Origin: Pirellulales bacterium
GTDB taxonomy: Bacteria; Planctomycetota; Planctomycetia; Pirellulales; PALSA-1355
Reading direction: 5' to 3'
Length of the DNA: 64,000 nt
Assembly: GCA_963733035.1 (NCBI GenBank)
Contig: CAVTBU010000005.1
Location: 704,001-768,000, forward strand
Shown: positions 582 to 29,251 of the stretch, in pieces
Layout of the letters: the number at the start of each line of letters is the position of its first letter
Numbering within the stretch: position 1 is the stretch's first letter
Program-made: the position numbers and the translations under genes
The notes under the pieces: model-generated
The model's input: only the letters and a program-made list of their open reading frames with translations
Databases searched by the model: none
What the model was told of the DNA's origin: nothing

Positions 582-817
582 TGCGACCGCGTTGGTTGTC
601 GTCGCAACTTCTGCCGACGTCGCCCACATAGCCAACGTTTGTCTCTCGGAGATTGCAAGTTGTCCGTCAGCTTGTTTTCGAGGGGCCAATTCTCTAAGAT
701 TGGGCCGCTGGCGTTCGACCATGATCCGCTCCGCTCGCTGAGACGCGTTTTGCGGATTATTTGATCGAACTGCTCGCACACTCCGTTCGCCGCAACGATG
801 CAACGAGCGAGGCCAGG

Positions 818-1873: not shown

Positions 1874-1894
1874 ACGAGAAGACGCGGAACCGAT

Positions 1895-3555: not shown

Positions 3556-3565
3556 CGAAGCGACC

Positions 3566-4195
3566 GTGAATAACCACGCCGAGATTTATGACACGCAGGG
3601 CGGCCCGGTGACGAACTTGCCGGTTCCGCCGGATGTCGTGCCAGAACATAACTTGAGTGCGCCCGAATGGGGAATGCTCAGCTTCCTCCTGTCGGAAGTC
3701 GCATTCTTCACCACGCTTATTGTCGCCTACGTGATGTTCAAAGGCACCGACACGGTGGGGCCGACACCCGGCGAAGTGCTCTCGCTCCATTTGGTAATCG
3801 GCACGACGGCCTGTCTGCTGTCGAGCAGCGTCACGGTCCATTTCGCCACGCACGCGCTTACCGGTGGACATGCGACGCGATTCCGGCTGCTGTGGACCGC
3901 CACGATTGCGCTGGGCGTCGCGTTTTTGCTTGGCACGGGGTACGAATGGTACGGTCTGATTGTTAACGACCATTTGACAATCAGCCGCAACCTGTTTGGC
4001 ACGACGTTCTATACGCTCGTAGGCTTTCACGCCCTGCACGTCTCGGTGGGCGTGCTCATGATGTCCATCATTCTCGTACTCGCGCTCGTGCGTCAGATTG
4101 GCCCGCAGCACACATTGGCGCCCCATCTAGTTTCCTGGTATTGGCATTTTGTCGACGCCGTCTGGATCGTTGTCTTCAGCGTGGTGTACTTGTAA
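3566..4195 (+). CDS. ctaE: Heme-copper oxidase subunit III (short form)
   Basis: FLLSEVAFF, TxxLLSSS, GFHALHV, WYWHFVDAVW motifs. Confidence 0.95.
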   Translation: MNNHAEIYDTQGGPVTNLPVPPDVVPEHNLSAPEWGMLSFLLSEVAFFTTLIVAYVMFKGTDTVGPTPGEVLSLHLVIGTTACLLSSSVTVHFATHALTGGHATRFRLLWTATIALGVAFLLGTGYEWYGLIVNDHLTISRNLFGTTFYTLVGFHALHVSVGVLMMSIILVLALVRQIGPQHTLAPHLVSWYWHFVDAVWIVVFSVVYL

Positions 4196-4211
4196 ACGTC
4201 GCAATTAACGC

Positions 4212-5484
4212 ATGGCCGACTCTCCCCCCACCACCGAAGTTCATGAAGCCGGCGTCGAGATGCCGCAATCAACGGCCGCGCCACTCGTGCTTGCACTCGG
4301 CATTTCGCTGTTGGCGGTCGGTTGGGCCACGAATGTTACGTTCGTGATCGTGGGGGCAGTGCTGTTCGTCGCCGGACTAGGCTCTTGGATTTCCCACCTG
4401 CTGCCCGGTCGGGGGCACGCAATCGAACCGCTGGCCGAACCCGCGCGGCGTGCCCACGCTGCTGAACCAAAAGTTGGCACGGTGGACCGACTGCGCCGCG
4501 GCATGCCAGGGCACCGACTGCGATTGCCAGAAAAAATGCATCCCATTTCGGCGGGCGTGAAGGGGGGCATCGTCGGTGGGATCGTGATGCCGTTGCCGGC
4601 CATGATCTACGGCGTCATGAGCGGGCACGGCATCTGGCTGCCAATCAACCTGCTGGCGGGCATGGTTCTGCCGGGAGTCGAGCGGCTGAGCCTGGAACAA
4701 TTGGACCGCTTTGACCCGACACTATTGACCGTGGGTGCCGTGATTCACGCGACCATATCCGTGACGTTTGGGTTGTTGTATGGCGTTTTGTTACCGACAT
4801 TGCCAACCATCTCGCGGCCGCTGGCTTGGGGCGCTATTGATGCCACTGTTGTGGACGGCCGCCAGCTTCTTGGCCACCACCATGGTCGATCCGACCGTTC
4901 GCGGCCTGATCGACTGGCCCTACTTCGTATTGTCGCAGTTTGTTTTTGGCGTTGTGGCTGCTTTGGTAGTCATGCTGTTCGATCCACAGCGACACGTTCT
5001 AGGAGGCCTCGTCGGTGGCATCGTGGGAGGCGTGTTGATGGTGGTACCCGCCATGCTGTGGGGCTATCTATCAGGTCACGGCATCTGGTATCCGGTGAAC
5101 TTACTGGTCGTCATGGCGTTGCCCCAGGGAGATGCGCTGTCGGTCGACGATATCGAACAGTATCATGCCAACTGGTTCGCCACGGCGACGGTCCTGCACG
5201 CCACGCTGTCGATCGGTTTCGGCCTGCTGTATGGCCTATTGCTGCGGCGATTGCCGCGCATTCCAGGGCCCTTCGCCTGGGGCGCGATGATGATGCCGCT
5301 GCTCTGGACCGCGACGAGCTACGCCATGATGGGCGTTGTCAATCCGGTGCTACAAGAGCGGGTCGATTGGCCGTGGTTCGTCGTGTCGCAGTTTGTCTAT
5401 GGTCTGGCGGTGGCGATTGTCGTCGTGCGATCCGAGCAGGTGTTCATCGCGCCTGCCGGCCAAGCAGCGAAAGGCGAACGATGA
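4212..5484 (+). CDS. Polytopic membrane protein with two internal repeats (frameshift at ~4831-4834)
   Basis: The N-part (frame of 4212) and C-part (frame of 4768) join to give two copies of GGIVGG..P(A)M..G..SGHGIW.P.NLL...HAT.S..FGLLYG.LL...AWGA..MPLLWTA...DWP.FV.SQFV.G. Stop overlaps the next ATG. Confidence 0.8.
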
Positions 5485-6248
5485 GACGTGCCGAGCAAGC
5501 AACCAAGACTTGGCTATGGGCAATGCTGATCGCCTGCGCCGCCGGCTGCCACGACGAGCTACCAGGAAAGCCCAATCCGGCAAATCGCCCCAAGACGCCG
5601 GCGCAGATCACAGATTTCTCATTCCTGTATCGCCAGAATTGCAGCGGCTGCCATGGCGCCGACGGAAAACTGGGGCCAGCGCCGCCGCTGAACGACCCGC
5701 TCTTTCTGGCGATCGTGCCAGACGACGTGCTGGTCGACGTGATCACGCATGGCCGCTCGGGCACGCCAATGCCGGCCTTCGCCCGCCGACTCGAAGGCGC
5801 ACTCACCGACGAACAAATCAAGATCATTGCCGACGGACTTAAGAAAGATTGGGCATCAGACAAGATACTTACCGTCAATCTTCCGCCCTACGAGCTTTCC
5901 CAGGTGGAATCGGCCGCTACGGAAGCATCGATCGAACGGGGCGAGAAGATTTTTTCCCAGGTTTGCGCGTCATGTCACGGCAAACAAGGCGCTGGTTCCG
6001 ACCACGGCGAATCCCCCGGCCGCATTAACGACTCAGCGCTGCTGACGCTGTTCAGCGACCAGGTGTTGCGGCGGATCATCATCACAGGTCGACCTGATCT
6101 GGGAATGCCTGATTTCTCCAGCGACGAGGGGCGCGACGGCGACTTCAAGCCGCTGACATCCGAACAAATCGATGACCTGGTGGCGTTACTTGCCCACTGG
6201 CGGTCCGGCTCGCCCAAAGTTGCCGCGGCCGACGCTCAACGTGAATAG
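5481..6248 (+). CDS. Diheme cytochrome c, probable lipoprotein
   Basis: ATG in an ATGA overlap; lipobox-like IACAAGC; CSGCH...MPAF and CASCH...MPDF heme motifs. Confidence 0.9.
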   Translation: MRRAEQATKTWLWAMLIACAAGCHDELPGKPNPANRPKTPAQITDFSFLYRQNCSGCHGADGKLGPAPPLNDPLFLAIVPDDVLVDVITHGRSGTPMPAFARRLEGALTDEQIKIIADGLKKDWASDKILTVNLPPYELSQVESAATEASIERGEKIFSQVCASCHGKQGAGSDHGESPGRINDSALLTLFSDQVLRRIIITGRPDLGMPDFSSDEGRDGDFKPLTSEQIDDLVALLAHWRSGSPKVAAADAQRE

Positions 6249-6267
6249 CTAGTTTCGAGACGAAATC

Positions 6268-6822
6268 ATGGACACGAAATTGCACCAAGGGGATTCGCCA
6301 ACGGACGTCACCGCGCCTCAGCGCCGAAGTTTTCTGGGAATGCTGGCGACAGGCCTCGGCGTCATCGCCGCAGCGTTGGTCGCGGTGCCGTTTGTCGGGT
6401 CGGTGCTTGGCAACCGCAAGCGAAAAGTCTATTGGGTCGATCTCGGACCAACGTCCGACTTTGACCTGCATCAAACACGACTCGTTACGTTTGACAACCC
6501 GCTGCGTCAGCCATGGGACGGCGTAACCTCGCAAACCGGCGTGTACGTCCGCTACCAGGGAGCCGAAGTAAAAGACACCGAGCAGTTCCTGGTCCTCAGT
6601 GTCAATTGCGCCCACCTGGGTTGTCCGGTATCCTGGTTTCCGCAATCGGAATTGTTCCTCTGCCCCTGCCATGGCGGCGTCTATTACTCCAACGGCGCGC
6701 ACGCTTCTGGCCCGCCGCCGCGAGGGCTCTACCACTGCGTGTGGCGGGTGCGCGACGGCAAACTTCAGGTTCAAGCACCGCACTACCCCACGCTGCACGA
6801 CACGTTGCAGCAACCGGCCTAA
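6268..6822 (+). CDS. qcrA: Rieske 2Fe-2S subunit of a quinol:cytochrome c reductase
   Basis: Tat-like RRSFL plus TM helix; CAHLGC and CPCHGG boxes; GPPPRGL. Confidence 0.95.
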   Translation: MDTKLHQGDSPTDVTAPQRRSFLGMLATGLGVIAAALVAVPFVGSVLGNRKRKVYWVDLGPTSDFDLHQTRLVTFDNPLRQPWDGVTSQTGVYVRYQGAEVKDTEQFLVLSVNCAHLGCPVSWFPQSELFLCPCHGGVYYSNGAHASGPPPRGLYHCVWRVRDGKLQVQAPHYPTLHDTLQQPA

Positions 6823-6842
6823 GAGTTCCAAGGAACGGCAGC

Positions 6843-8363
6843 ATGTGGCACCTTTTAAAACGCATTGGAACCTGGTTTGATCGGCGACTGGCCGTCAGCG
6901 AGGTGATACTGCCGACGATGCGACACCCGGTGCCCCGCGCCGTCGACAGCGCGATGGGTTGGTGGTATGTGTTCGGTAGCGCCTCGCTGACGTTTCTGTT
7001 GATCCAGATCCTCACGGGCATCGGACTGGCCATGACCTACGTGCCAGCCGCGAATGAAGCCTATGACAGCCTGTTGTATTTGGACTACGAACAACCGTGG
7101 GGATGGTTTCTACGAGCACTGCACTACTACGCCGGTTCCGGCATGGTCGTAATGGTACTGGTGCATATGACGCAAGTGTTTCTGCAAGGTGCCTACAAAT
7201 ATCCCCGCGAACTGACTTGGATCGTAGGCGTCTTTCTGCTGGTCTGCGTAATGGGCATGTTCTTCAGCGGGCAAATCCTCCGTTGGGATCCCGATGCCTA
7301 CTGGGGGCTGGCCGTGGCTGGGTCGATGGCAGGTCGCGTACCGCTGGTCGGGCCGCAGGTCGTGCACGCCCTGCTCGGCGGCGATATCATCGGCGCTTCG
7401 TCGTTGAGCCGGTTCTTCACCTTGCACGTATTCGTCATTCCCGGCGCGCTGCTCGGATTGTTGGCAGTGCACTTGTGGCTGGTGCTCAAGTGCGGTATCA
7501 GCGCTCCGCCGGTTCGCGGCGTGACGGTCGACCCGAGTACTTACGACAAGCAGTACGATCAGGAGTTGAAAGCGGGCGTTCCGTTTTTGGGCGATGCCCT
7601 GTGGAAGGATATTTTCTTCTCGGCGTTGGCCACGATTATCGTCGTGGTAATTGCGGCCGTGGTGGGGCCCAAGGGACCAAGCGAGCCTCCCGACCCAACG
7701 CTAGGCGGGGCGAACCCGCGACCCGAATGGCCGTTTCTGTGGCTGTTTGCCATGCTGGCTCTCAGCCCTCGCGACGTTGAAACGTTCATCATGTTGGTGT
7801 TTCCGGTCGTAGTGATTGGCATCCTGTTGCTGGTGCCGTTCGTCAGCAATCGAGGCGAACGAGCACCGAGTCGACGGCCCGTGGCGGTGTTGGTGGTCAT
7901 CGTGACCTACACGACGATTGGCGTGTTGACATATCTGGGAGCGACCGCCCCTTGGTCGCCGAAGATGGACGCCTGGACTGGCGATCCGGTGCCCATTGCC
8001 ATGGTGAAGCAGAGCAACGTTTCGGAATTGGTCGGCGGCGCCGTTTTTCAATACAAGAATTGTCGCAACTGTCACGCGTTGGACGGCATTGGCGGACGCC
8101 GTGGCCCCGACTTGACGACGGTTGGCGCGCGTTTGACTCGCGATCAATTGATCGATCAGATCAGCAACGGCACGCCCGGTGGTGGTCTGATGCCGGCGTT
8201 TGGAAAGCAGATCACGCCGGCACAAATGACAATCCTGGTTGATTTTCTGGTCGGTCTCCGTCCCGAGGGACAGCCCCCCGCTGGCTGGTCGACCCCGGGT
8301 CCATCTCTTGGAATGGAACCGGAGTCGGCCGAGAAGGACGAACCTTCGCCCAATGCGTCATGA
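6843..8363 (+). CDS. qcrB: Cytochrome b (b6 + subunit IV regions) fused to a C-terminal cytochrome c
   Basis: QILTG..LAMTYVP, RALHYY...VHM, YPRELTW, RFFTLH...VH, PEWP loop, C-terminal CRNCH...MPAF. Confidence 0.95.
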   Translation: MWHLLKRIGTWFDRRLAVSEVILPTMRHPVPRAVDSAMGWWYVFGSASLTFLLIQILTGIGLAMTYVPAANEAYDSLLYLDYEQPWGWFLRALHYYAGSGMVVMVLVHMTQVFLQGAYKYPRELTWIVGVFLLVCVMGMFFSGQILRWDPDAYWGLAVAGSMAGRVPLVGPQVVHALLGGDIIGASSLSRFFTLHVFVIPGALLGLLAVHLWLVLKCGISAPPVRGVTVDPSTYDKQYDQELKAGVPFLGDALWKDIFFSALATIIVVVIAAVVGPKGPSEPPDPTLGGANPRPEWPFLWLFAMLALSPRDVETFIMLVFPVVVIGILLLVPFVSNRGERAPSRRPVAVLVVIVTYTTIGVLTYLGATAPWSPKMDAWTGDPVPIAMVKQSNVSELVGGAVFQYKNCRNCHALDGIGGRRGPDLTTVGARLTRDQLIDQISNGTPGGGLMPAFGKQITPAQMTILVDFLVGLRPEGQPPAGWSTPGPSLGMEPESAEKDEPSPNAS

Positions 8364-10696
8364 ACTCCGCACTCGACGCCTTTTTGCGTTCGTGGCCCTC
8401 CGAGCCTGGCTTGGTTGCGATGCTCGCGGCATCGGGCGCGGTGTATTTTCGCGGCTGGCGAAAACTGCGTCGCCATGACGCGGATCGTTGGAATTTCGGC
8501 CGGCTGGCGACCTTCTGGGGCGGCCTGCTGACGATCTTCGCGGCGCTTGCTTCGCCGATCGAGCCGTTTGCCAATCTGCTGTTGCAAGTGCACATGCTCC
8601 AGCACATGCTGCTGCTCGTCGCGGCACCGCCGCTCATTTGGCTTGGCGCGCCTCTGCTGCCGATGCTGCGGGGGCTGCCCAAGCGGTTGCGGGTTTCGTT
8701 CGTCGTACCGATCTTACGATCGCCGGTGGTGCGCGATGCCTTTACATTCTTAGTGCATCCGCTCGTGGCCTGGCCGTTGCTGGTCGGTGTTGTCTGGCTC
8801 TGGCACTCTCCGCGCGGCTATGAGCTTGCGCTCGACGACCCGGCGTGGCATGTTATCGAACATCTCAGCTTTACGGTCGCCGCCCTGCTGTTTTGGTTTC
8901 CCGTGGTGTTGCCATATCCCAGCCGGCCGCGCTGGTCGCGCTGGATTGTCTTGCCGTATTTGATCCTGGCGGACGTGCAGAACACGATTCTGGCTGCCTG
9001 GCTTACGTTTGCCGCGGTACCAATTTATCCCCACTACAGCGAAGTTCCGCGGGTGGGCGGTTGGTCTCCGCTGGCAGACCAACACGTCGCCGGCGTGTTG
9101 ATGTGGGTTCCCGGATCACTTGCGTTCCTACTACCCGTGTGCGTAATCGGTGTGCGAATGCTTTATGGCCCGTCGCAAACACGAACCGTGATGCGACGCA
9201 AAGGCGTACCGTCTTTGGGCGCGCTACCGGTCCTGACGGAACACGACCTTCGCGCCAAGCCACGCGTTTCGCACGCGCCGGCGTGGGACCTTCTCAGGGT
9301 GCCGCTAGTCGGCCGCTTCCTACGTCGCCGGTGGGCTCGTCCGGGATTGCAACTTATCATGCTGGGCTTGGCGGTGCTTGTGATCCTAGACGGACTATTG
9401 GGGCCTCGCGTCGGCCCGGCAAATCTGGCGGGCGTCGCTCCCTGGATTCACTGGCGCGGACTCGTGATGTTGGGGCTGCTTGTGGGCGGAAACTTGTTCT
9501 GTATGGCCTGCCCCTTTACCTTGCCACGCAAGCTGGCCCAACGCTGGCTACCCGAGGGCAGAAGTTGGCCGAGAGCCCTAAGAAGCAAATGGCTTGCGAT
9601 CGTGCTGGTTGCATTGTTCCTTTGGAGTTATGAAGCGTTCTCCTTGTGGAACAGTCCTTGGCTGACCGCCTGGATCGCGGTGGCCTACTTTGTCGCGGCG
9701 TTTGCAGTCGACGGACTGTTTCGAGGCGCGGCTTTCTGCAAATATGTCTGTCCGATCGGCCAGTTCAACTTCGTGCAGTCGCTTGTCTCTCCGCTGGAGG
9801 TCGGCGTGCGTCAGCCAGCCATCTGCGCTGGCTGCAGCAGCAAAGAGTGCATTCGCGGTAGTGCGGCTGCGGCTGGCTGCGGCATGCAGCTGTTTCAACC
9901 GCGCAAAAACGGCAACTTTGATTGCACTTTTTGTTTCGATTGCGTGCAGGCCTGCCCACACGAAAATGTTGGCGTGTTCGCGACATTTTCCGCCGGTCGA
10001 CTCGCCGATACGCGATTGTTCCGCTCGGGAATTGGTCGGTTAGGCCAGCGCGGCGACGTGGCGGCGCTCGTATTGCTGTTAGTGTTCGGCGCGTTTGCCA
10101 ATGCCGGAGGCATGATTGGCCCCGTCGTGGCTTGGCAGGACGACTTGCGATTGCGGTTCGGCAATCCGCCACACATTGCGGCCGTGAGCGTGTATTATTT
10201 TATAGCCATTGTCGTTGCACCGCTGATGGTCGTCTCGCTGGCCGCGATGGCTAGTGGTTTGTGGAACGGCACGGCACGGTCGCTGTTCCGCATTGCCACG
10301 CGCTACGCCTATGCGTTGATCCCTTTGGGGTTCGGCATGTGGCTGGCACATCATGGATTTCATCTCTTTACGAGTTACGGCACGATCGTGCCCGTGGCTC
10401 AACGGATGACGATCGATTTCGGCTTCTCGAATTTGACCGAGCCGCAATGGCAACATGCCTGCTGCCTGGGCGTAGCCGATTGGATCATCAAATTCGAGCT
10501 GCTGGCGCTCGATGTGGGGCTGATTGGTTCTCTGATGGTCGCTTATCGCGTCGCAGTGGATGACGTCGGCCAGGGAAGACGGGCATTGGCAGCCATGCTG
10601 CCCTGGGCTCTGGTCATCTGCACCTTGTTTGCCATCGGTGTGTGGATTGTGCTGGAGCCGATGCAGATGCGCGGCACATTGCCGATGGGTGGATGA
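8360..10696 (+). CDS. CtaG-type caa3 assembly domain fused to a membrane polyferredoxin (NapH/MauN/FesM-like) domain
   Basis: N-half: HMLQHMLL, WH.P, EH, DQ..AG..MWVPG. C-half: FCMACP, FCKYVCP, CAGC...C, CTFCFDCVQACP. Confidence 0.88.
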   Translation: MNSALDAFLRSWPSEPGLVAMLAASGAVYFRGWRKLRRHDADRWNFGRLATFWGGLLTIFAALASPIEPFANLLLQVHMLQHMLLLVAAPPLIWLGAPLLPMLRGLPKRLRVSFVVPILRSPVVRDAFTFLVHPLVAWPLLVGVVWLWHSPRGYELALDDPAWHVIEHLSFTVAALLFWFPVVLPYPSRPRWSRWIVLPYLILADVQNTILAAWLTFAAVPIYPHYSEVPRVGGWSPLADQHVAGVLMWVPGSLAFLLPVCVIGVRMLYGPSQTRTVMRRKGVPSLGALPVLTEHDLRAKPRVSHAPAWDLLRVPLVGRFLRRRWARPGLQLIMLGLAVLVILDGLLGPRVGPANLAGVAPWIHWRGLVMLGLLVGGNLFCMACPFTLPRKLAQRWLPEGRSWPRALRSKWLAIVLVALFLWSYEAFSLWNSPWLTAWIAVAYFVAAFAVDGLFRGAAFCKYVCPIGQFNFVQSLVSPLEVGVRQPAICAGCSSKECIRGSAAAAGCGMQLFQPRKNGNFDCTFCFDCVQACPHENVGVFATFSAGRLADTRLFRSGIGRLGQRGDVAALVLLLVFGAFANAGGMIGPVVAWQDDLRLRFGNPPHIAAVSVYYFIAIVVAPLMVVSLAAMASGLWNGTARSLFRIATRYAYALIPLGFGMWLAHHGFHLFTSYGTIVPVAQRMTIDFGFSNLTEPQWQHACCLGVADWIIKFELLALDVGLIGSLMVAYRVAVDDVGQGRRALAAMLPWALVICTLFAIGVWIVLEPMQMRGTLPMGG

Positions 10697-11363: not shown

Positions 11364-12404
11364 ATGTACGCAAAATTTGAACAGACGCTTGGCTGGCAGG
11401 TCGGCATTTGGATCGCTAGCCTGATTATTTCATTAACAAACGAACTGGCGTCGGCCGCCAAACCAGATGCCGCCGAGATTCCGGCCCCGGCTTACGTTAC
11501 GTTAATGATGGCCCGCGACCCGGCAGTGCAATCGGAGTTGAAACTCACTGCCGCGCAACTTACCGCGGTCAAAGCAGCGATTGCGGAGGTCGATCAGCCG
11601 TTTTGGCAATTGCGCGACGTGCCTCCGCAAAAGTGCGCCGAGAAACTCGATGCCGGCTTGCTCAAGCTCCGTGCGCGACTGGCCAAGGCCATGACGCCCG
11701 ACCAGCTCATACGTTTCGATCAGCTTGTCATGCAAGCCCGCGGCGCACGCGCTTTGGTCGCCCCCGATGTGCGCCAGCGGCTTAAGTTGGGCGAGGTCCA
11801 GGTCGCGAAGATCGACGAATTGGTGGCCGGGACAAAGGAGGGCGGGCTCGACTCACAACAGGTGATGGCCCTACTAACTCCCGAACAACAATCGCAATTG
11901 ACGACGATGTTCGGCCCGCAGTTCGACTTGAGCCGCGTTACTCGCGTCGGTTGCATGGCCCCCGAAATTCGGTCGGTCAGCGCGTGGGTCAATAGCCAGC
12001 CGCTAACGCTCGAAGCGCTGCGCGGGAAGGTCGTCATCGTGCACTTCTGGGCCTTTGGATGCATCAATTGCATCCACAATCTGCCGCACTATCAGGCCTG
12101 GTACGACAAGTTTCCACAGTCAGACGTGACGATTATCGGCATCCATACTCCGGAGACATCCGCCGAGCGTGACTTGAGCAACCTGCAAGCAAATATCGCC
12201 GAGCGGGGAATTAAGTATCCTGTGGCTTTCGACGCCGCCGCCGAGAATTGGAAAGCGTGGGCAAATAACGTGTGGCCGGCGGTCTACCTGATCGATCGCC
12301 GCGGTCAGGTGCGAGCCTGGTGGTATGGCGAGTTAAACTGGCAAGGGGCGCGCGGCGAAGAGTCAATGCGCAAACAAATCGAGGCGCTCGTCTCAGAGCA
12401 ATGA
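11364..12404 (+). CDS. Exported redoxin (TlpA/DipZ-like thioredoxin fold) with N-terminal helical repeats
   Basis: RBS GGAGAAAGG; signal peptide; LRGKVVIVHFWAFGCINC, IGIHTPE, WPAVYLID..G, GE motifs. Confidence 0.88.
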   Translation: MYAKFEQTLGWQVGIWIASLIISLTNELASAAKPDAAEIPAPAYVTLMMARDPAVQSELKLTAAQLTAVKAAIAEVDQPFWQLRDVPPQKCAEKLDAGLLKLRARLAKAMTPDQLIRFDQLVMQARGARALVAPDVRQRLKLGEVQVAKIDELVAGTKEGGLDSQQVMALLTPEQQSQLTTMFGPQFDLSRVTRVGCMAPEIRSVSAWVNSQPLTLEALRGKVVIVHFWAFGCINCIHNLPHYQAWYDKFPQSDVTIIGIHTPETSAERDLSNLQANIAERGIKYPVAFDAAAENWKAWANNVWPAVYLIDRRGQVRAWWYGELNWQGARGEESMRKQIEALVSEQ

Positions 12405-12434: not shown

Positions 12435-13151
12435 CTACGGCCGCTGGTCGCGCGGCTGGCCCCCCCGAGCGAACTCGTTCAACCCAGCAGACGGGTTTGA
12501 CGCCAGATTCAGATTCAGGCTTCGCAGGAGATGAAAGTCCTGGCCATGAATGAATTGGCAGCCAATTAGATAGTTGGGGCCGACGCAGAGCGACCAGCGA
12601 ACCTTTAGTCGCAGCGTTTCTTCGCCATTTGGCGTTTGGACCAGCGTGTGAATACTGCGCGTTTGTTCCGGCGCCTGGCTGGTCATCAAACATAGACCAC
12701 CCTCGGAAAGGTCGCGAATCATTCCTGGTATGCGCGGTGCTTCACGCGACCAGCGTATGTCGACGGGAATTCGCGTTTGAAACCGTATGGCCGATCGCCG
12801 CTCGAGCAGGCCGCTGGCTACCAGTTCGGCAAATCGTGTTTCGCTCATTCGCTTGTCGAACTCGCACTCAATCAACCAGTCGCCCGTCGGGTTGAGCCGG
12901 GCCCAGGCGATTTCGCCGAAAATTACCAGCGTGCGCGTGAGCTTTGAGCTGACCAATCTCAGTCGACAACGACAGGGTAGTTCCGGCGGTCCGGCGACCA
13001 GCAATTTGGCACTGGCCGCCGAAATCTCCCGCAACTCCGCGCCGCAGTCGGCCGGCAGTTCTCCATCGCTGGGAGAGAGAATCATGGCATCGACCAACTC
13101 TGGATGAACCAAAGGATAGGAGCGGTCGCACCTGGTAGACGCTATCGACAT
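12435..13151 (-). CDS. PilZ domain-containing protein (degenerate N-terminal PilZ + canonical C-terminal PilZ)
   Basis: ERRSAIRF (RxxxR) and RDLSEGG (DxSxxG), V.W...GCQF; the first half has RSYP...EISAAS...WAR...ECEF. Start uncertain. Confidence 0.8.
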   Translation of the reverse strand: MSIASTRCDRSYPLVHPELVDAMILSPSDGELPADCGAELREISAASAKLLVAGPPELPCRCRLRLVSSKLTRTLVIFGEIAWARLNPTGDWLIECEFDKRMSETRFAELVASGLLERRSAIRFQTRIPVDIRWSREAPRIPGMIRDLSEGGLCLMTSQAPEQTRSIHTLVQTPNGEETLRLKVRWSLCVGPNYLIGCQFIHGQDFHLLRSLNLNLASNPSAGLNEFARGGQPRDQRP

Positions 13152-13594
13152 GGTCAAACTCGTGGTTTCAATTGGGAGGCTGAACTCCCAACTGTAGGTC
13201 GAGACGGCGCGTTGTGGGAGCAAAAAAACCAGTACGGACCTGGACAATCGAGGGCGTGACAACGCGCGGCATGTACACGGCAATGCTGCGCATGCCCTAA
13301 AGTCTGCCTTGCCAGCCGGTAAAATCGCTACGATTTTCCTACGTGCACTGCCATCGCCGACTTACGTGACCCGCATTCGTCGGCCGCTCGCGAAAGTCGT
13401 AATTGCTTGCCCGCGCATACCAATTGGCAATGCCGTCAGATAGCACACGCAATCAAGGCGATAAACGCAAGTTACTTGCGAATTTCATGGACAGCTAGCA
13501 TCGAATTTAATCATAATCTACGTGACTTGTCGGGTTTGGCTTCCGTGGCGCGAAGCAACAAGTCCCCCTCTCTCTTCCGCGGCAATTGCACGTC

Positions 13595-16229
13595 ATGGCG
13601 AACGTGGTCGATCCGAATTCCTGGCGCATGATTCCACTCCCAGATCCCCAACGTACCGGGCCGACCGCCGACCCTATCGGCTCCGAGGTCCAGGCACCGG
13701 AAAGTTTGGCCGCCTCGCGGCAATCAACCATCGACGTGTTGACCACTGTTCTCGAGGGATCCTTCGCGGCCCCTGGTGACCGAGTTGTGTGGAACCTGTC
13801 GGAACGTCTGTCGAATTTAGCCGCAGACGGGAAGCAGCTGCGTGTCGATTCACAACATGAGATTGCCGCGCCAGCCGCCCAATTTCCAGAGCAACCTGGC
13901 GTCGATTCCGAAGCGCCTGCACCACGGCCGTGGCTGGTGCTGGTGGAAAATGCGAGCGGCGTCCAAACGGTTACGCAGGCCGAGCGACTGCGCAGCGATC
14001 GATCTTGAATCGCAACTTCTCGTCGTACTTTGCGATGTGGACGATTCTCAGCTACGACACGTTGACACGCACGAAGCAAGTGGGGCCGCGCGTGTCGCGG
14101 ACCGGTTGCAATGCGATTTTGTAGGCCCATTGGACGCGGCCAACCCGGGCCAGCTGAGCGAGGCCTTGGCGCGTGTCAAGCAGAGTGGTCGGTCGACCGT
14201 TTTATATGTTGACGCACGGACTTTGCAGGCCCCAGCCCCTCATTTCGCACCGGTTGACCGAGCGTCAGACGGCGAATCGACGGTCGGCGCTGGAGAGCGG
14301 CTGCGGGATATCGCGTCGGGGGCTCTGGCAACGCTGGCCGCCAACGATCGGCGAATTGCCGTGTATTCAGCAGACGACGATTCGCTGTTCAAGACGACAG
14401 CCGAATCCAGTATTTCGCAAGAATTGCCGCTCGATGAGCGCGTGCCGATGGCCATCGACCAATGCGCCTCCCTCGCCGCGCGGGGCGGCAAACCGTTTCT
14501 CTTTATGTCGGCAGACGAAGTGCAGAACCATCTCGGTCGTATTCGTCGCGAGATTTGCCTCGATCGACGTGGGGTGACGCTCGTCATCGAGGCACGCCGT
14601 GCTGGCGCGGTGTCCGAAGTCATCGGTTCGGCGAGTCTGTCGGGCATTCGCCACTTGCCAGACATTTCATTGTTGGCACCTAAGGACGGCACCGAGCTTT
14701 GTCAGATGCTTACTTGGTGCGTGGATCAAGCTGACCCGGCGGTGATTTGGCTTTCCGAACAGTGGGAGCCACCGGTTCACTGGCCGCCAGGTGACGAAAT
14801 TGTCCGCGGTCGCGCCGAGCGACTGGGAAAAGGGACGGACGTGACGATTATCGCGTGGGGCTCCCAGGCCGCTGCGGCCGCGATTGCAGCGGAGAATCTG
14901 GCACAGCAGGGCATCGTTGCCACGGTTGTCAACGCCCGCTTCGCGCAACCACTCGATGTAGAGACCTTGGCCCGCGCTTGCTCCGACGCGGCCTACTTGG
15001 TGATTGTGGATGATGCTCCGGCCGGGGGCGGCTTTGCGGGATGGGTCTCGGAGCAGCTTGTCCGACGAGGAGTCGTGCAGAGTATTACGATCGTTTCCTC
15101 TGCGAATCTCTCGGAACGCTCCCATTCCGACGACCCGCATGACCAGTTGGCGTCGCACATTGTTGATCGCTGCCGTTGGCTGAGCGAGCCGATGTTCGGC
15201 CAACGGGTTGATCCGGAAATGCGGGTCGTGTCGGTGGAGAGGCCCGTATTTCCGAGCTACCCGGTAGCGCGGATTTTCGAGACGGCAGGGAGTTCGGACG
15301 TTCAGCAGCAAATCCTTGCGCAGCAATTCAGTCCGTTCATCCAGCGTTGGGTCGAGCGATACGCTCTGGTCGGCAGCCGTGACGTATATTTGTGGCGTTG
15401 GTGTTTGCACGGACTGGGGTTGACGACGCTGTCGTGCGTCCCGGTGGCGTTGCGCCATGATTTGTGCGATACGAAGCTGCTGGCGGTGATGTATGGCGTC
15501 ATGCTAGACGACGTGGCCGACCAGGCGGGAGGCGACGAATTTCTAGCGGCCCTGATCGGCATCATCGCCGGTGAGTCGGAGCGCAATTTTGGCGCGTTCT
15601 CCAGTGAACAGCAAGAGTACGCTCGGTTTACATGCGATTTGTGGGACACGTTTCGAGGTCGTCTGGAATGCTCTCCCTGCTACCAGGAATACGCAGAGCT
15701 GTTGGACTACGACCATCGGCAGATCCTCAACACGTTTGCGTACTCTTGCATGGTGAACAAGCATCCGGCGCTGCTCAACGTGCAAGAACACGACATGTAC
15801 ATGCCACACAACATGCAAATGATGAGTTTTGCCACGATGGACCTGATGTGCTCGCCGAAGTTCGATCGAAACGAACTCGGGAGATTGCGAGAGGTGATCT
15901 GGCACGCGCAGAGCATGGGGCGTATCGGCAACCTCGTCAGCACGTGGCAGCGAGAGATTGCGGATCGAGATTTTACCAGTGGAGTATTCGCCCGAGCATT
16001 GCGGCAAGGCGACCTGACGCCGGACGACCTGCGTTCGGCATCGGCCGAGTCGATCGAAGCGGCCGTTCGGCGTGGCGGACACGAACAATATTTCTTCCAG
16101 AAATGGGAGACGCACCGGCGTTGCATCCTGGGGTTGGCTCCGGACATCCATAGCGTCGACGTGGGTCAGTTGCTAGGGGCGCTGACCCAGCTGATGGACA
16201 TGGAGATCCATAGTCGCGGTTTGAAATAG
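13595..16229 (+). CDS. Degenerate DXP-synthase (DXS)-like protein fused to a class I terpene/isoprenoid synthase-like domain (frameshift at ~13990-13993)
   Basis: DXS-collinear segments: GDRVVW, LLVVLCD, FVGPLDA, LAARGGKP, LAPKDGTEL, GTDVTIIAWG, VVNARFAQPLD, GGGFAG. The C-terminal helical domain has DDVAD (15507-15521) and RIGNLVSTWQRE (~15921-15956). Restoring GC at 13990 joins the ORFs (RLRAAIDLESQ; ~878 aa). Confidence 0.8.
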
Positions 16230-16252
16230 CGCGTTTTTGCGCCCGGCACTTG

Positions 16253-19386
<3,134 letters not shown>

Positions 19387-19390
<4 letters not shown>

Positions 19391-20556
19391 AGCGAGAAAT
19401 ACTCTACGTCGACGATGAAATGGAGAATCTGGTCGTTTTTGAGGCCACGTTCGAGGACTATTTCGACGTCGTTACCGCCTCGAGCGGAGCCGAAGCGTTG
19501 GCCCTGCTCGAGCAGCGCTCATTCCCCGTCGTCGTCGCCGATCAGCGAATGCCCAAGATGAGCGGTGCCGAGCTATTCGAAGTCATGCGGCGTAAGTTTC
19601 CGCACACGAAACGGATCATGCTTACCGGGTACGCCGATTCCAAGGCAATGCTTAGTGCCATCAACCAGGGCCAGGTGTTCTATTTCATCAAGAAGCCTTG
19701 GGAGCAGGATGACGTTTTCTCAATTCTGCTGCGGGCCATCGAAGCCTACGACATGTCGCTGTCGAACGTGGTGTTGCAGGATCGACTGGTTGCCGCCGAC
19801 CGCTGCGCCATGCTGGGTCGCTCGGCCGCACGGCTCGCTCACGAAATGGGCAACCAGCTATGTATGTTGCCGCTGCTCGAACTGATTGAGGACGAATACA
19901 GCGATCACGAAGACCTCGTGCGGATGGCGTCGTTCGCGCGATCAACCTACGATCGGCTCGTGCAGATCGTCGAAGAAGTAAAATCCTTCGTTCGTTTCGA
20001 ACGCGAGGAAATGGTTACTCAGCCGCTGGAGTTGTCCGAGGCCGTGCACGAACTGGTGGAGTTCCTGCGCTTTGAACGAAGTCTGCCGATGGACCGCTTG
20101 ACGGTCAATGTGCACGGCGAGAGCTGGGTGCGTGCCAATCGAATCAAGATTCAGCAAGTGCTGATCAATTTATTGAAGAACGCCGAGTTCGCGACACGCA
20201 ATCGCGACGATGGACACATCACGCTCACCTTGTCCAACGAGGGAGAGCGGGCCATCCTCACGGTCGCGGACAACGGATGCGGGATGACGGCTGAGGTGGA
20301 ACAGCGAATCTGGGAACCGTTTTTCACGACCAAGGGTGAGCAGGGCACGGGGCTTGGCCTCGACGTCGCCAAATCGATCATCGAGGGACACGACGGCAGC
20401 ATCGATTGCACCACCGAACCCGGCGCCGGCACTTCGTTCACGATTCGGTTGCCGCGCATCGAACCCACCGATCCCGCCGCGAGCCTACAGCTTCCCATCG
20501 AGGGAACGGCACTCCACGATTTTTCGTCGCTTTCCACCCCGATGTCGCTCAACTAA
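19387..20556 (+). CDS. Hybrid response regulator/histidine kinase (REC-HisKA-HATPase)
   Basis: YVDDE, ADQRMP, LTGY, KPW; AHEMGNQL; NLLKNA, DNGCG, FFTTK, GTGLGL. ATGA overlap with the upstream kinase. Confidence 0.95.
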
Positions 20557-20603
20557 ACGCCCAGCCGGACTCCCGGCCCAATGGAGACGGAGATCGTTTG
20601 ACC

Positions 20604-21539
20604 ATGAAGATACTACTGGTTAGCCCTCGCGGTTTTTGTGCGGGCGTCAACATGGCGATCGATGCGCTCGAACAGGCCATCAAAATGTTCGGTACACCGC
20701 TCTACGTGTTCCATGAAATCGTACACAACCGCCATGTCGTGCAGCGGTTCAAGGACAAGGGCGTCGTGTTCGTCGATCACGTGCATGAGGTTCCGCGCGG
20801 CAGCCACCTGATGTACAGCGCCCACGGCATTTCTCCCGCCGTACGAGAACAGGCCCGCGAGCGCGAATTACAAGTCGTCGATGCCACGTGCCCACTCGTC
20901 CGCAAGGTGCATCTCGAAGCGATTCGCTTTGCGCGCTTGGGTTACTCCATCGTCCTGGTTGGCCATCGCGATCACGATGAGGTCGTCGGTACCTTGGGCG
21001 AGGCCCCCGGCCAGATCGTACTCGTGGAAACCGTCGACGACGTCGATCGCCTGCACGTTGCGGATCCCAACAAAGTTGCCTACCTCACGCAAACGACTCT
21101 CAGCGTCGACGACGCGGGCGTTATCATTGATCGACTACGAGCAAGATTTCCCAATTGCGTCGGTTCGCCGAAAGAAGACATTTGCTATGCCACGCAGAAC
21201 CGGCAGGAGGCCCTTAAGGCTGGCGTCGAACGGGCCGACGTCGTCCTGGTTTTTGGCAGCAAGAACAGTTCCAACAGCATCCGTTTGACGGAAGTGGCCG
21301 CCGAGTTCGGCCGTCCGACACATCTGGTTGACAGTGTCGAGGAAATCGATCGCGATTGGTTTCGTGGCGCTGAAACGGTGCTGATCACCGCGGGCGCCAG
21401 CGCGCCGGAGGATCTGGTAATCGCCTGTGTGGATCTGCTGACCCAAGAATTCAATGCGACCGTCGAACGCCTGGCCGTGCGCGATGAGAATGTGGAGTTT
21501 CCCCTCCCGTACGAGATTCGCCCGCTGTCGGCCGGTTGA
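20604..21539 (+). CDS. ispH: 4-hydroxy-3-methylbut-2-enyl diphosphate reductase
   Basis: PRGFCAGV, HEIVHN, SAHG, DATCPLV, HDEV, QTTLS, ICYATQNRQ, SSNS, TAGASAPE; all three Fe-S cysteines present; RBS GGAG. Confidence 0.98.
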   Translation: MKILLVSPRGFCAGVNMAIDALEQAIKMFGTPLYVFHEIVHNRHVVQRFKDKGVVFVDHVHEVPRGSHLMYSAHGISPAVREQARERELQVVDATCPLVRKVHLEAIRFARLGYSIVLVGHRDHDEVVGTLGEAPGQIVLVETVDDVDRLHVADPNKVAYLTQTTLSVDDAGVIIDRLRARFPNCVGSPKEDICYATQNRQEALKAGVERADVVLVFGSKNSSNSIRLTEVAAEFGRPTHLVDSVEEIDRDWFRGAETVLITAGASAPEDLVIACVDLLTQEFNATVERLAVRDENVEFPLPYEIRPLSAG

Positions 21540-21785
21540 TCTTTCGGCGGTCGCTTTGCCGCTCGGTTTCGTGCCGGTCGTCCCAGCCGCCATTCGGTGT
21601 ACAAGAAGATCCTCAACTTGCGAGCTCGTGATTTTCGAGCGAATCCTTCCAGTCGGCACGTGATGCCGTTCGATTAAGTCTATACGGAGACTGGACTTAA
21701 GATCGACTTTTCCGGTTAGGCAAGCTCGGCAAAGCCACTTCCGGCCGAGGCCACGGTTTCGTTCTTTAGGGCGATGGAGCGCTTC

Positions 21786-23054
21786 ATGAAGCTGCGTCGA
21801 ATTCTTGCCTGTTCGGGTCTGCTACTGCTGCTGGTTGGCCCCACGTTGGTCCGCGCCGATGGCCTAATTCTGGACGGCGTCGGCCCAATCTCGAGCGGTC
21901 GTGGCGGTACGAATCAGGCTTTTTCCGACAACGCTGCGATCATCCTCGACAACCCGGCCGGCATGATGAACGTCGCTGGCAACGGCTTGGCCGAAGCGGG
22001 CGTCGATACCGTGATTCCCGTCGTCAACTACTCCGACCCGTACAATGATGTCCAAAGCAAGATTCGCCCGCTGCCGGTTCCGAACCTGGGCTTGATCCGA
22101 AAAAGCGCCGACGGACAGTGGGCCTGGGGCATCGGTGCATTCATGCCAGCGGGCTTCGGAGCGAGCTACGGTGTGCTAAACAATCCCGTCACGGGATCCA
22201 ACCTGCTTCGGTCGCAAGGCGGCCAGGCGAGGTTGTTGCCCGCCCTGAGCTTTCGTGCGACCGAACGTCTCTCACTGGGGATCTCCGTGGGAGTTGGGCT
22301 CAGCTATGCTTCGCTCGACGGCCCGTTGTACTTGCAGTCCGGGGCACTGGCTGGCGCGCCCTCGATTATCGACGTCGAGGGGACAGGTGTCGCGCCGATC
22401 GGTTCGGTCGGCATGCAATACCAGTTGACCGAGAAGACAAGGATCGGTGCCACGTACACCGAACAAGCCAACTATTGGTGCCATGGCGGAAGCAACGCGA
22501 CGATTATCACGGGCTTGGGCCCTCTGCAAAGCCACTTCAATAGCCAATTCAGGATCCAATGGCCGCGAAGCGTAGCCTTCGGTCTGAAGCACGACTTTTG
22601 CCCACATCGCCACTTCTCGGCCGATGTGATTTGGTACGACTGGGCACACGCATTCAACAACATTCAACTGTTATTCTACGACGCGACGAACCCGTTGCTC
22701 GCCGGCCAGATTAGCCAGACGCTGCCGCTAAACTGGACCGATAGCGTTTCGATGCGGCTGGGATACCAGACGGAGTTTACGGAAGTCGATACCTTCCGCT
22801 GCGGCTATGTTTATCACTCCAGCCCTTCGCCAAACTCGACGTTGAATCCCTACATTGACGGCATCCTGCAGAATGCATTCAGCTTGGGCTATAGCCGCAC
22901 TTTCTCCCGCGCAATCTTCAACGTGGCATACCAATATCACTTCAGCAATACCCGCCACGTTGTCAACAGCGGGTTGATCGGCGGGCAATTTGATAATACG
23001 ACCATGCGAGCTCAAGCACATTTCGCGATGCTGAGCTTGCTGGTGCCGTATTAG
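21786..23054 (+). CDS. OmpP1/FadL/TodX-family outer-membrane channel for hydrophobic compounds
   Basis: Signal peptide; hatch-like N-terminus GRGGT...DNAA...DNPAGM; amphipathic beta-strand pattern; aromatic C-terminal residue. Confidence 0.88.
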   Translation: MKLRRILACSGLLLLLVGPTLVRADGLILDGVGPISSGRGGTNQAFSDNAAIILDNPAGMMNVAGNGLAEAGVDTVIPVVNYSDPYNDVQSKIRPLPVPNLGLIRKSADGQWAWGIGAFMPAGFGASYGVLNNPVTGSNLLRSQGGQARLLPALSFRATERLSLGISVGVGLSYASLDGPLYLQSGALAGAPSIIDVEGTGVAPIGSVGMQYQLTEKTRIGATYTEQANYWCHGGSNATIITGLGPLQSHFNSQFRIQWPRSVAFGLKHDFCPHRHFSADVIWYDWAHAFNNIQLLFYDATNPLLAGQISQTLPLNWTDSVSMRLGYQTEFTEVDTFRCGYVYHSSPSPNSTLNPYIDGILQNAFSLGYSRTFSRAIFNVAYQYHFSNTRHVVNSGLIGGQFDNTTMRAQAHFAMLSLLVPY

Positions 23055-26549: not shown

Positions 26550-28954
26550 TCAGGCGCCCGGTTGCCGGCGCGAGACCCCAAGCGCTCGGTACGTCAGCAG
26601 CTTGGCAAAATCGTTGACCACGAACCACGCCAGGGCATATCCCCATACGACGAACGCCCATCCCCAACCGATGGGATTCATCAATCGGAATCCATACACG
26701 GCAATCAGAGTCGCCAGCAGCTGCGTGGTGAGCACGGCCGAAAGCAGGGCCTTCGACGGGGCGAATGACCAAAACGGCCCACGCGTACGCGTCAGGAAGA
26801 TTGTCAGGTGCCCGGCCACGGAGAGCTTCAGGTACATCAGCGTCTGAATCGTATCGCGGTCGAGTTTGAATACCTGTTCGCCCAGGTAGAACAAGCCGAA
26901 CGACGCGAACACGCCAAAGATTCCCAGCACCGTGGCCAGCGACAATACGCGTCGCATATCCCAGGCTTCCGGTCGATTCGCATACAGCACATGATCGTAG
27001 GCGATCGAGAGGATTGCTCCGTCATTCAAGAGTGCCAACAAGACGATCATAACCGCCGTTACGGGATAAAAGTTGAACGCGATTATCGACAGCGTCATGA
27101 ACAGCAGCACCCGGACCGTCTCGGCGATCCGGTAGATCGCGTAGCTGTTCATCCTCTGAAAGATTTTGCGGCTTTCCTTGATCGCATCGATGATCACCGA
27201 CAGACCCGGCGTCAACAGCACGATGTCGGCGGCCGCTCGCGCCGCGTCCGTCGCTCCCGAGACAGCAATGCCGGCATCGGCCTTTTTGAGGGCGGGCGCA
27301 TCGTTCACGCCGTCACCGGTCATGCCCACAATGTGCTCGCGTCCTTGCAACAATTCGACGATCCGATACTTGTGCTCGGGAAACACTTGGGCAAATCCAT
27401 CGGCGGCTTCGATCGCCTGGACCATGTCGCTGTCGCTTTTGTTTGAATCGCTGAAAAGCCGTGCATCGAGAATGTCGGTTCCGAGACCGATTTGCCTGGC
27501 AATCTCTTTGCCAATGGCGACCTGGTCGCCGGTGACCATCTTCACATCGACGCCCATGCCGCGGGCGGTGGCAATCGTGGCGGCTGAGTCGTCGCGTGGC
27601 GGATCGAAAAGCGGCAAGACTCCGAGGAACCGCCAGGGACCGTTGCCGTCGCGCCGCGCTACACCCAGTGAGCGAAATCCTCGCTTGGCAAAATCATCCA
27701 CCGCCTGTTCGACGGTTGGTCGCACCTGATCGGCGTTGGAAACCAACTCGGTAATGACCTGCGGTGCGCCCTTGGTGACCTGAAAGCTCTCGCCACCGGG
27801 TCCACGAATCGCGGCTTCGGTTCGCTTGCTCACCGGGTCGAATGGCTGGTAATGCGCAACTTGATACGCGTCGAGCTTCGCGGCAGCCGGCAAGGCCGCC
27901 AGAACGGCATTGTCGATCGGATCGTCGTCTTCCGACCGCGATGCCAACGCGGCACTCACGACAACGTCGCCGGGAAGAACTCCATCGAGCGTAAAAGGAT
28001 CCGCGAGCGCAAGTTGATTCTTCGTCAGCGTGCCAGTTTTGTCGGAGCAGAGCAGGTCCATCCCTGCCAACTCCTCGATCGATACCAACCGGCTTACGAT
28101 TGCTTGGCGCTGCGCCAACTTTCGAGCACCCACGGCCATCGTCACCGAAAGGACCGTGGGCATGGCCACCGGAATGGCCGCAACGGTGAGGACCAGCGCG
28201 AATTGAAAGGTCTCGAGCATGGGGTCGCCGCGCCAGAAGGCCACGGCAAGAATCAATGTGACGAGCGCCACGGCAATCACAATCAGGTAATTGCCGATCT
28301 TCAGCACGGCTTTCTGGAAGTGGCTTACGGTATGGGCAGCCGCCACGAGGCTGGCTGTCTTGCCGAAATAAGTGTGCACGCCAGTTCCGGTCACAACCGC
28401 GTCAGCTTCTCCCTGGCGAACGATCGAGCCGGAATAAACCGTTTCGCCCTGCTTACGCGTGACGGGGAGTGATTCGCCCGTGAGTGCGGACTGATCGACT
28501 TCCAGCGGATCTCCGGGCGCAGCGCGGCGTCGGCGGGCACGATATCGCCCAGCCGCAGTCGCACGAGGTCATCGGGCACCAGCTCTCGTGAGGCGATTTG
28601 GATCCATCGGCCGCCGCGTTTGACGCGTGCCTTGAGGGCCAGGCGTTCTTTCAACGCCGCAATCGCATTGCCGGCCTGAAATTCTTCCCAGGCACCGACG
28701 ACGGCATTAGCCACGAGCAACAGCAGGATAATGGCGAAGTCGTCCCAATGTTCGACGATCGCCGAAAGCACCAGGGCCGCCTCGATCATCCACGGAATCG
28801 GCCCCCAGAAGTAGCCTAGGAATTTAAGAAGCGGATTGTCCTTTTTCTCCGCCAGTTCGTTATATCCCCAGCGCTCGAGTCGCTCGGTCACTTCGCTGTC
28901 CGTGAGTCCGCCGGACGAAACCCCACTGGTAACATCGACGTCCTGGGCATGCAT
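26550..28954 (-). CDS. Plasma-membrane proton-efflux P-type ATPase, P3A/Pma1-like (frameshift at ~28515)
   Basis: FWGPIPWMIE, GDIVPAD, DQSALTGES (after frame correction), IPVAMP, CSDKTGTLT, KGAPQ, TGD, GDGVNDAPALKKAD, TM6 LLNDG...AYD. Confidence 0.93.
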
Positions 28955-29251
28955 CGCAGCTCTCCATGGGGTGCCGGTGAGTGCCACACGTCATTTTTAA
29001 CGAATGTGGGCGATCGGAAAAGGCCAGGACTAAACTGCTCGCTCGATTGAATTCCCGCCGGAATAGCGACGGAAGTCTTCGAAATGCTTTGCAAACGGAG
29101 GTTTCATCCTGCTTCTGGCAGCGTGACGAGACCGCGCGGTGCTACTCAGGGAAAATAGGGGAGCGGTGTTTCCTGAATTTTCAGACAGCAATTCCGATAT
29201 CGTCGGAGCGCGCACAATGTCCAAGTTATCGACCCGAAATGCCTCAGGCAA

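Follow-up and report, generated by a model that had tools for sequence, protein, structure and literature searches.

A candidate terpenoid signalling cassette in Pirellulales: a terpene-synthase-like fusion paired with a sensor kinase

Why would a bacterium place a protein resembling a terpene synthase immediately before a membrane-bound sensor kinase? The locus that raises this question lies in a 64,000-nt window (hereafter, the window) of a Pirellulales genome (GenBank assembly GCA_963733035.1, contig CAVTBU010000005.1; G000 contig C5:704001-768000 in our numbering). Its open reading frame (ORF) list contains five co-oriented genes on the + strand between 13595 and 23054, encoding a fusion of a DXS-like part with a class I terpene-synthase-like domain, a hybrid histidine kinase with two kinase cores, a REC-histidine kinase, an IspH and a FadL-type outer-membrane channel. 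An initial annotation, made from the sequence alone, had proposed this gene set, and we found the genes where it placed them, with the domain content it described (Pfam, NCBIfam). We give about an even chance to the reading that this cassette is self-contained, both making and perceiving a small hydrophobic terpenoid.

Synthase and sensor occur together

Relatives of the synthase domain were found in Pirellulales and other Planctomycetota, and the order synthase, kinase, REC-kinase, IspH, FadL was kept in 5/5 loci with flanking sequence. The domain is present in 5 of 401 genomes sampled across the phylum and in 40 of 401 genomes of the order, where it is concentrated in the window's own family (f1; 18/32) and in a second family (f109; 17/17). 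The first 320 residues of the kinase, comprising the membrane domain and HAMP, were detected in 41 of the 401 order genomes: all 40 that carry the synthase, plus one that is 78% complete. We retrieved 48 loci at the order level, 45 of which extend at least 1200 nt downstream. In every one of these (45/45), the synthase is followed, at gaps of 3-505 nt, by a co-oriented kinase whose sensor is homologous. In the 32 genome loci that extend at least 9 kb downstream, ispH is present in 30, an orthologue of the REC-kinase in 26 and FadL in 20.

The pairing extends to metagenomes, in which a scan found 206 relatives and the best 80 loci were kept; some of these loci are near-duplicates, and all our counts include kin. 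The sensor kinase lies within 4 kb of the synthase in 40 of the 53 loci with at least 1200 nt downstream, and in 39 of the 40 in which the synthase is at least 43% identical to that of the window. Thirteen loci have at least 9 kb downstream, of which 12 contain the sensor, nine ispH and nine FadL.

At the order level there are two cassette types. Type A has a fused synthase, as in the window, while type B consists of a stand-alone synthase, a kinase with six transmembrane helices (6TM) and the architecture 6TM-HAMP-HisKA-HATPase-REC-REC-Hpt, a REC-HD-GYP regulator, IspH and FadL. Synthase and sensor trees (FastTree) both sort by cassette type, with 3 and 4 label changes compared with shuffled means of 20.9, which is weak evidence as kin share labels. 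The initial annotation had made its proposal depend on conservation of the neighbourhood, and such conservation is seen well outside close kin, in two families of Pirellulales, in a further order of the class, and in Phycisphaerae. The arrangement is far beyond chance, and functional coupling of the cassette genes is well supported.

Gene layout

The coordinates of the cassette and its divergent neighbour are collected in Table 1. The genes are as tightly spaced as first quoted: the fusion and kinase are 20-23 nt apart (TTG start at 16250, or ATG at 16253, which gives 23 nt), the kinase and REC-kinase genes overlap by ATGA, and 47 nt separate the REC-kinase from ispH. The last gap, between ispH and FadL, is 234 nt, or 246 nt from a second ATG. 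A promoter and terminator scan of the locus gave 3 vs 3.2 and 15 vs 11.9 in shuffles; since these counts are not above the shuffles, they are uninformative on operon structure.

Table 1. Features of the candidate cassette, in window coordinates.
Feature	Position	Strand	Basis or remark
PilZ-domain protein, divergent	12435..13283	-	Pfam PilZ, 44 bits
N-terminal piece of synthase fusion	13595..14008	+	Other frame; TGA 14006-14008; homologue N-termini and tblastn
Apparent frameshift site	13985..13995	+	GC run 2 nt shorter than in related strain
Main ORF of fusion	13842..16229	+	Degenerate DXS-like part, then class I terpene-synthase-like domain; Pfam/NCBIfam
Pseudo-DXS region	14100..15185	+	BLASTP to own-genome DXS
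Class I terpene-synthase-like domain	15303..16229	+	DDVAD at nt 15507-15521; N..T..E at nt 15930-15956
Double hybrid histidine kinase	16250..19390	+	Pfam, hydropathy, model with HAMP match
REC-histidine kinase, no output domain	19387..20556	+	Pfam
Cassette IspH (4-hydroxy-3-methylbut-2-enyl diphosphate reductase)	20604..21539	+	Pfam LYTB, NCBIfam, E. coli IspH alignment
FadL/TodX-family outer-membrane channel	21774..23054	+	Pfam Toluene_X

The terpene-synthase-like domain

The C-terminal domain of the fusion has the DDxxD motif, the NSE/DTE motif and the alpha-helical fold of class I terpene synthases. The second metal-binding motif of these enzymes, NSE/DTE, reads (N,D)xxx(S,T)xxxE; here D556, D557 and D560 (DDVAD) as well as N697, T701 and E705 are invariant in 10/10 close homologues. 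Across a 32-member alignment (A2), D117/D118/D121 are 90-100% conserved, and N258, T262 and E266 are conserved. A structural model of the domain (predicted local distance difference test score, 88.9) returned terpene synthases for all its top matches with both Foldseek and VIA-align. PF19086 (Terpene_syn_C_2) is matched by 12 of the 32 A2 relatives at E<=0.01 (best 2.6e-7), leaving the window's own domain unmatched, and in a Pfam scan of 40 family members seven gave weak matches to this model, one of them above the cut-off (P0174). Based on motifs and modelled fold, we predict class I terpene synthase activity, that is, the Mg-dependent conversion of a prenyl diphosphate into a terpene.

The family is sizeable, with 653 cluster representatives at E<=1e-3, of which 291 remain at E<=1e-30. 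Its members are either stand-alone proteins of about 310-350 aa or form the C-terminus of proteins of 600-950 aa. The source genome has one copy of the domain.

A decayed DXS

The only Pfam match of the main ORF is Transketolase_C (PF02780, 69.8 bits, residues 323-410). The NCBIfam dxs equivalog TIGR00204 gives 78.3 bits (cut-off 465.95), at model positions 363-578 only, and Pfam did not find DXP_synthase_N, the thiamine diphosphate-binding domain, in the fusion, which therefore does not count as a full-length DXS. By BLASTP, fusion residues 87-448 are 24% identical to the DXS of the same genome, covering DXS residues 243-623 only. Since the thiamine diphosphate-binding domain is absent and homology begins only at DXS residue 243, we regard this part as a pseudo-DXS. 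A complete enzyme is retained in some relatives. A Phycisphaerae fusion has an intact DXS, 40% identical to that of the source genome over 629 residues, with GDG...N and ...DGPTHHG segments visible in the alignment. Among the 40 members scanned with Pfam, Transketolase_C was found in 12, several have fading relics of the DXS N-domain, and in one (P0057) the DXS is complete, with DXP_synthase_N at 296.8, Transket_pyr at 166.9 and Transketolase_C at 115 bits. The earlier description of the fusion as a pseudo-DXS joined to a terpene-synthase-like domain is borne out by its motifs, its fold and the relatives with an intact DXS.

Two further sequences deserve mention here. A weak DXS-C-terminal-like match (69.5 bits) lies elsewhere in the source genome, within a 642-aa open frame (G000:C7:692663-693385, - strand, locus L005). 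In P0182, the C-terminal part of HMG-CoA reductase precedes the synthase-like domain; this would be a fusion to the mevalonate instead of the methylerythritol phosphate (MEP) pathway, or, as the contig is only 2.5 kb, possibly a truncated call.

A protein built in this way might sense rather than synthesise. It could be a non-catalytic or slow sensor of isoprenoid diphosphate pools which, together with the kinase, balances MEP flux or membrane isoprenoids, with IspH as the controlled step. We consider this quite unlikely. The DXS part is indeed already a pseudo-enzyme, the gap between synthase and kinase is as small as 3 nt, a distant member of the subfamily directly precedes a REC protein, and one relative has a weak PilZ domain ahead of the synthase-like domain. 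However, the metal-binding residues are invariant family-wide, as catalysis would require, the Phycisphaerae version keeps its intact DXS and adds a monooxygenase, and an outer-membrane channel fits poorly with a purely cytoplasmic sensor.

An apparent frameshift in the first gene

The conserved N-terminus of the fusion ('MANVVDPNSWRMIPLP...') opens at ATG 13595 and closes at a TGA in a different frame from the main ORF, and homologous sequence beyond this TGA resumes in the frame of the main ORF. The initial annotation took the first gene for a single open frame from 13595 and overlooked the frameshift; in this assembly the gene occupies two frames. In relatives, tblastn finds the N-terminal piece in frame with the rest of the fusion, and the fusion is unbroken in ten homologues (P0002-P0011). 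Open frames are 863-945 aa long in relatives (863-875 aa in genomes of the same genus) compared with 802 aa here. A contig from run X2, representing a relative of about 94% identity, has a 'GC' inserted behind 13989 that restores the frame; in the near-identical run X1, no listed piece spans the site.

The apparent 2-nt deletion near 13989 may be genuine or an assembly error. Elsewhere in the window, a P-type (E1-E2) cation ATPase is split within its E1-E2 domain into overlapping ORFs (26550-28394 and 28391-28987, both on the - strand), and this second apparent frameshift raises the odds that indels in the window are assembly errors. If real, the deletion may weaken or abolish production in the source genome.

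Kinase and phosphorelay

The second gene encodes a hybrid histidine kinase with HAMP (residues 264-315), HisKA (360-427), HATPase (474-584) and REC (634-745), all above Pfam cut-offs, followed by a second ATPase core (about 923-1009) belonging to a DHp-HATPase kinase core. Hydropathy indicates six hydrophobic helices before HAMP (approximately nt 16319-17044). The translations contain the H-boxes 'SHELRTP' and, in second place, 'AHEINN', plus the receiver aspartates. The third gene has a REC (5-112) and a HATPase (252-357). This domain order suggests a relay running from core 1 to REC, core 2, the REC of the third gene, and core 3.

No Pfam model matched kinase residues 1-260, the best 25 of 177 NCBIfam matches all fall at the kinase cores, a weak MASE10 match to the membrane sensor domain is below the recognition threshold, and no solved fold matched the sensor-domain model beyond HAMP. 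The six hydrophobic segments before HAMP, together with the FadL channel, support a lipophilic ligand, which may be the product of the adjacent synthase.

One extra ispH per cassette

The cassette IspH matches PF02401 (LYTB) with 297.5 bits, NF002190 with 409.4 vs 389 and TIGR00216 with 308.3 vs 187.85. It aligns end to end with the solved E. coli IspH, with identical residues at the three Cys positions that bind the cluster and at the catalytic His, Glu, Thr, Ser and Asn positions. By this comparison, it looks catalytically intact. A second, housekeeping ispH, 62% identical to the cassette IspH, is found at C7:313009-313836, and an intact dxs (686.5 bits) at C7:583411-585258. The initial annotation had suggested looking for both, and the cassette ispH is not the sole copy.

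We counted ispH matches in 33 genomes of family f1, of which 19 are synthase-positive and 14 synthase-negative. At least two matches were found in 17 of the 19 positives; in the two exceptions, the cassette is cut by a contig end or the genome is 78% complete. Of the negatives, 12/14 have at most one. In the first of the other two (G673), a single gene is split into adjacent pieces, each giving a match. The second (G678, 72% complete) has a partial ispH at a contig start (C30:1-492) followed by FadL (1068-1850), probably the end of a cassette in which synthase and kinase are unassembled. Two cassette types coexist in some genomes, and four of the five f109 genomes carrying both have three ispH genes. 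The pattern is one housekeeping ispH plus one per cassette.

In an ispH tree, made by a quick method and excluding the f109 housekeeping copies, the 21 f1 housekeeping copies group in a single clade (support 99). Cassette copies of type A, whether from f1 or f109, lie outside this clade, and type B copies lie nearer to it. The LytB of the Phycisphaerae cassette is only 30% identical and has a very long branch, suggesting independent recruitment.

The source genome also encodes three polyprenyl synthases, none inside the cassette. A prenyl-chain synthase was considered as a cassette member and rejected, being near in only 5 of 134 loci, around an ispA-like gene. These five loci come from three families (L078, L086 and L104 of genus g296, L066, and L108), and in the three from g296 the cassette adjoins the housekeeping ispA-dxs pair. 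Because DXS and IspH, the two ends of the MEP pathway, were recruited while no chain-elongation enzyme is in the cassette, the product could be a hemiterpene; a C5-derived product is allowed by this gene content, not demonstrated by it. If true, this would be a bacterial hemiterpene synthase of the terpene-synthase type.

Outer-membrane channel, c-di-GMP links and flanking genes

The last gene matches Toluene_X with 107.4 bits (cut-off 29.7) at positions 27-393 of 421. Because other paralogues exist, FadL cannot serve as a strict marker of the cassette. The FadL/TodX channels that have been characterised are importers, and FadL adjoins the synthase in a distant planctomycete with another type of kinase, so one could imagine that the locus takes up an external hydrophobic compound through FadL and senses it with the kinase, the synthase and IspH being co-located for unrelated metabolism. 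This would leave the strict synthase-sensor pairing, the one-ispH-per-cassette rule and the FadL-less cassettes unexplained, and seems very improbable to us. If the cassette makes the terpenoid that it perceives, transport through the channel might be outward.

In about 24 type B loci, and likewise in the G128 locus, the relay terminates in a REC-HD-GYP regulator. The divergent PilZ gene upstream of the synthase is kept only within the window's own family, and its product is a possible accessory protein. The REC-HD-GYP regulator of type B and, more weakly, the divergent PilZ gene in f1 make cyclic di-GMP (c-di-GMP) the likely downstream currency. A weak PilZ match (20.9 bits, below cut-off) is fused in front of the synthase-like domain in P0109.

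Further upstream, a respiratory block (761-10696, + strand) encodes cytochrome c oxidase subunits II, I and III, multi-haem cytochrome c proteins, a cytochrome b/c fusion, and a 778-aa CtaG-like assembly factor. It is followed by a redoxin gene (11364-12404), which is syntenic with the cassette in close relatives.

Other versions of the cassette

Outside the order, the cassette takes several forms. In a genome of a different order, a stand-alone synthase is accompanied by the same double kinase (40% identity over its full length) and the REC-kinase (51%), with no ispH or FadL within 10 kb and unrelated flanks. The persistence of the synthase-kinase pair amid entirely different flanks supports their coupling. 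In a genome of another family of the phylum, the order is FadL, fusion, a Ser/Thr-kinase-AAA-TPR-GAF histidine kinase, REC and REC-HD-GYP. A Phycisphaerae contig carries, in turn, an unknown gene, the intact DXS-synthase (100% identical to a Phycisphaerae protein), a flavin adenine dinucleotide (FAD)-dependent monooxygenase, LytB, a 6TM-HAMP kinase, a REC-kinase, another unknown gene and FadL. REC-kinase orthologues have the same position in type A and Phycisphaerae cassettes.

The monooxygenase lies between synthase and LytB in Phycisphaerae-type loci (L121/L122, L132, L142, L156 and L161), and three type A loci of f109 (L074, L087 and L092) have a homologue with 40-42% identity upstream of the fusion. 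A distant subfamily (about 40-42% identity, loci L166-L191) is without the 6TM kinase. In one of its loci (L191:9890-11680), the synthase is directly followed by a REC-domain protein, and TonB receptor, YfiR-like, CHASE8-HAMP and PAS-kinase genes are found beside it.

The monooxygenase gene, present in six Phycisphaerae-type and three Pirellulales loci, may encode a tailoring step. This is what one would expect if the locus were an ordinary terpenoid gene cluster with precursor-boosting MEP genes, whose relay senses an external or envelope cue and switches the pathway; the product would then be protective, membrane-associated or allelopathic, and leave through FadL. Extra dxs and ispH genes do occur in actinomycete terpenoid clusters, and the ligand may be something other than the product. 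Yet Pfam revealed no DNA-binding regulator in any cassette version inspected, the sensor family is confined to genomes with the synthase, all other partners being variable, and type B ends in a c-di-GMP phosphodiesterase-type regulator, an output that would be global and not pathway-specific. We therefore think a gene cluster of this kind rather unlikely, although it deserves more weight than the other alternatives considered here.

Proposed function

If the cassette does make and perceive its own terpenoid, it might work as follows. The extra IspH would raise the local supply of isopentenyl and dimethylallyl diphosphate (IPP/DMAPP). The class I domain, once fused to a working DXS that is a pseudo-enzyme here, would ionise a prenyl diphosphate and release a terpenoid, which would partition into membranes and pass the outer membrane via the FadL-type channel. 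The six-helix membrane domain of the kinase would detect this terpenoid and drive a multi-step relay through kinase core 1, REC and kinase core 2 to the REC-kinase. The output would be encoded elsewhere in this version, with c-di-GMP its likely currency, given that the relay of the sister version ends in a REC-HD-GYP regulator. The intact DXS-synthase fusion and the FAD monooxygenase of the Phycisphaerae cassette support a biosynthetic context.

Several observations weigh against this proposal. The first gene is frameshifted in this assembly, and the last ~310 residues of the window's fusion, searched alone, matched no Pfam model and no PDB sequence. The five-gene cassette has no output domain in this version. 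FadL is absent from 12 of the 32 genome loci that extend at least 9 kb downstream, and the family has other FadL paralogues. Among metagenomic loci with a synthase less than 43% identical to that of the window, the sensor kinase was found in just 1/13. The synthase and sensor counts are inflated by kinship, since the taxon-labelled examples are all Planctomycetota, and adjacency fits equally well with a kinase that regulates the pathway in response to another cue.

It is tempting to go further and see here the first bacterial terpenoid autoinducer system, comprising orthogonal synthase-receptor pairs in three or more types of cassette. Made directly from the IspH product, a small and possibly volatile terpenoid would be exported through FadL and act on the six-helix kinases of neighbours, switching a c-di-GMP-controlled lifestyle; its role would thus lie between cells and not be cell-autonomous. 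We offer this extension tentatively, with somewhat more doubt than confidence.

The cassette nevertheless provides a concrete candidate for a terpenoid signalling system, with one enzyme, one kinase and a clear prediction for each. It also defines a large unannotated terpene-synthase family and a natural DXS-synthase fusion decaying into a pseudo-enzyme, and the pattern of an additional ispH for each cassette could be of use in mining genomes and engineering pathways. To our knowledge, signalling in planctomycetes is almost unexplored, and the cassette suggests that in these bacteria isoprenoid metabolism is linked to control by c-di-GMP.

Comparison with known systems

We know of no terpenoid that serves as a dedicated bacterial cell-cell signal with its own receptor. 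A full-text literature search, with most subscription journals outside its scope, likewise returned no description of such a signal, of a terpene synthase-sensor kinase pair, or of a DXS-terpene-synthase fusion.

Non-canonical class I terpene synthases, classes ID-IF, have been mined from actinomycetes (PMC11234867). Like the present family, they are recognised through their fold and not through sequence models; the passages describing them mention no DXS fusion, kinase pairing or planctomycetes. Solved bacterial class I synthases (for example LrdC (E)-biformene synthase 6oh6, 10-epi-cubebol synthase 7zrn and linalool/nerolidol synthase 5nx4) are only 9-13% identical to the domain. Unlike them, the family here has no Pfam or NCBIfam model, and its domain is fused to DXS or a DXS relic and always paired with a kinase.

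Actinomycete terpenoid clusters are known to contain extra MEP-pathway genes (dxs/ispH), and the cassette is similar in having a second ispH, and ancestrally dxs, next to a terpene synthase. It differs in having DXS and synthase joined in one protein, whose DXS part has become a pseudo-enzyme in Pirellulales, and in having no prenyl-chain elongation enzyme. Moreover, its constant partner is a signalling relay and not a set of tailoring enzymes.

The closest parallels in organisation are perhaps Vibrio CqsA-CqsS, Legionella LqsA-LqsS-LqsR and Ralstonia PhcB-PhcS-PhcR, which are pairs of an autoinducer synthase and a membrane sensor kinase. As in these systems, the synthase gene adjoins a kinase whose multi-helix membrane sensor is suited to lipophilic ligands, and, like PhcR, the next relay protein is atypical, with REC fused to a kinase core. 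The kinase here has two kinase cores, and we saw no sequence relation between its sensor and those receptors. The synthase has a class I terpene-synthase fold instead of being an acyl/pyridoxal phosphate enzyme or a methyltransferase, and the cassette adds a precursor enzyme (IspH, ancestrally also DXS) and an outer-membrane channel. The cassette resembles synthase/sensor-kinase signalling in its logic and differs from it in its predicted chemistry.

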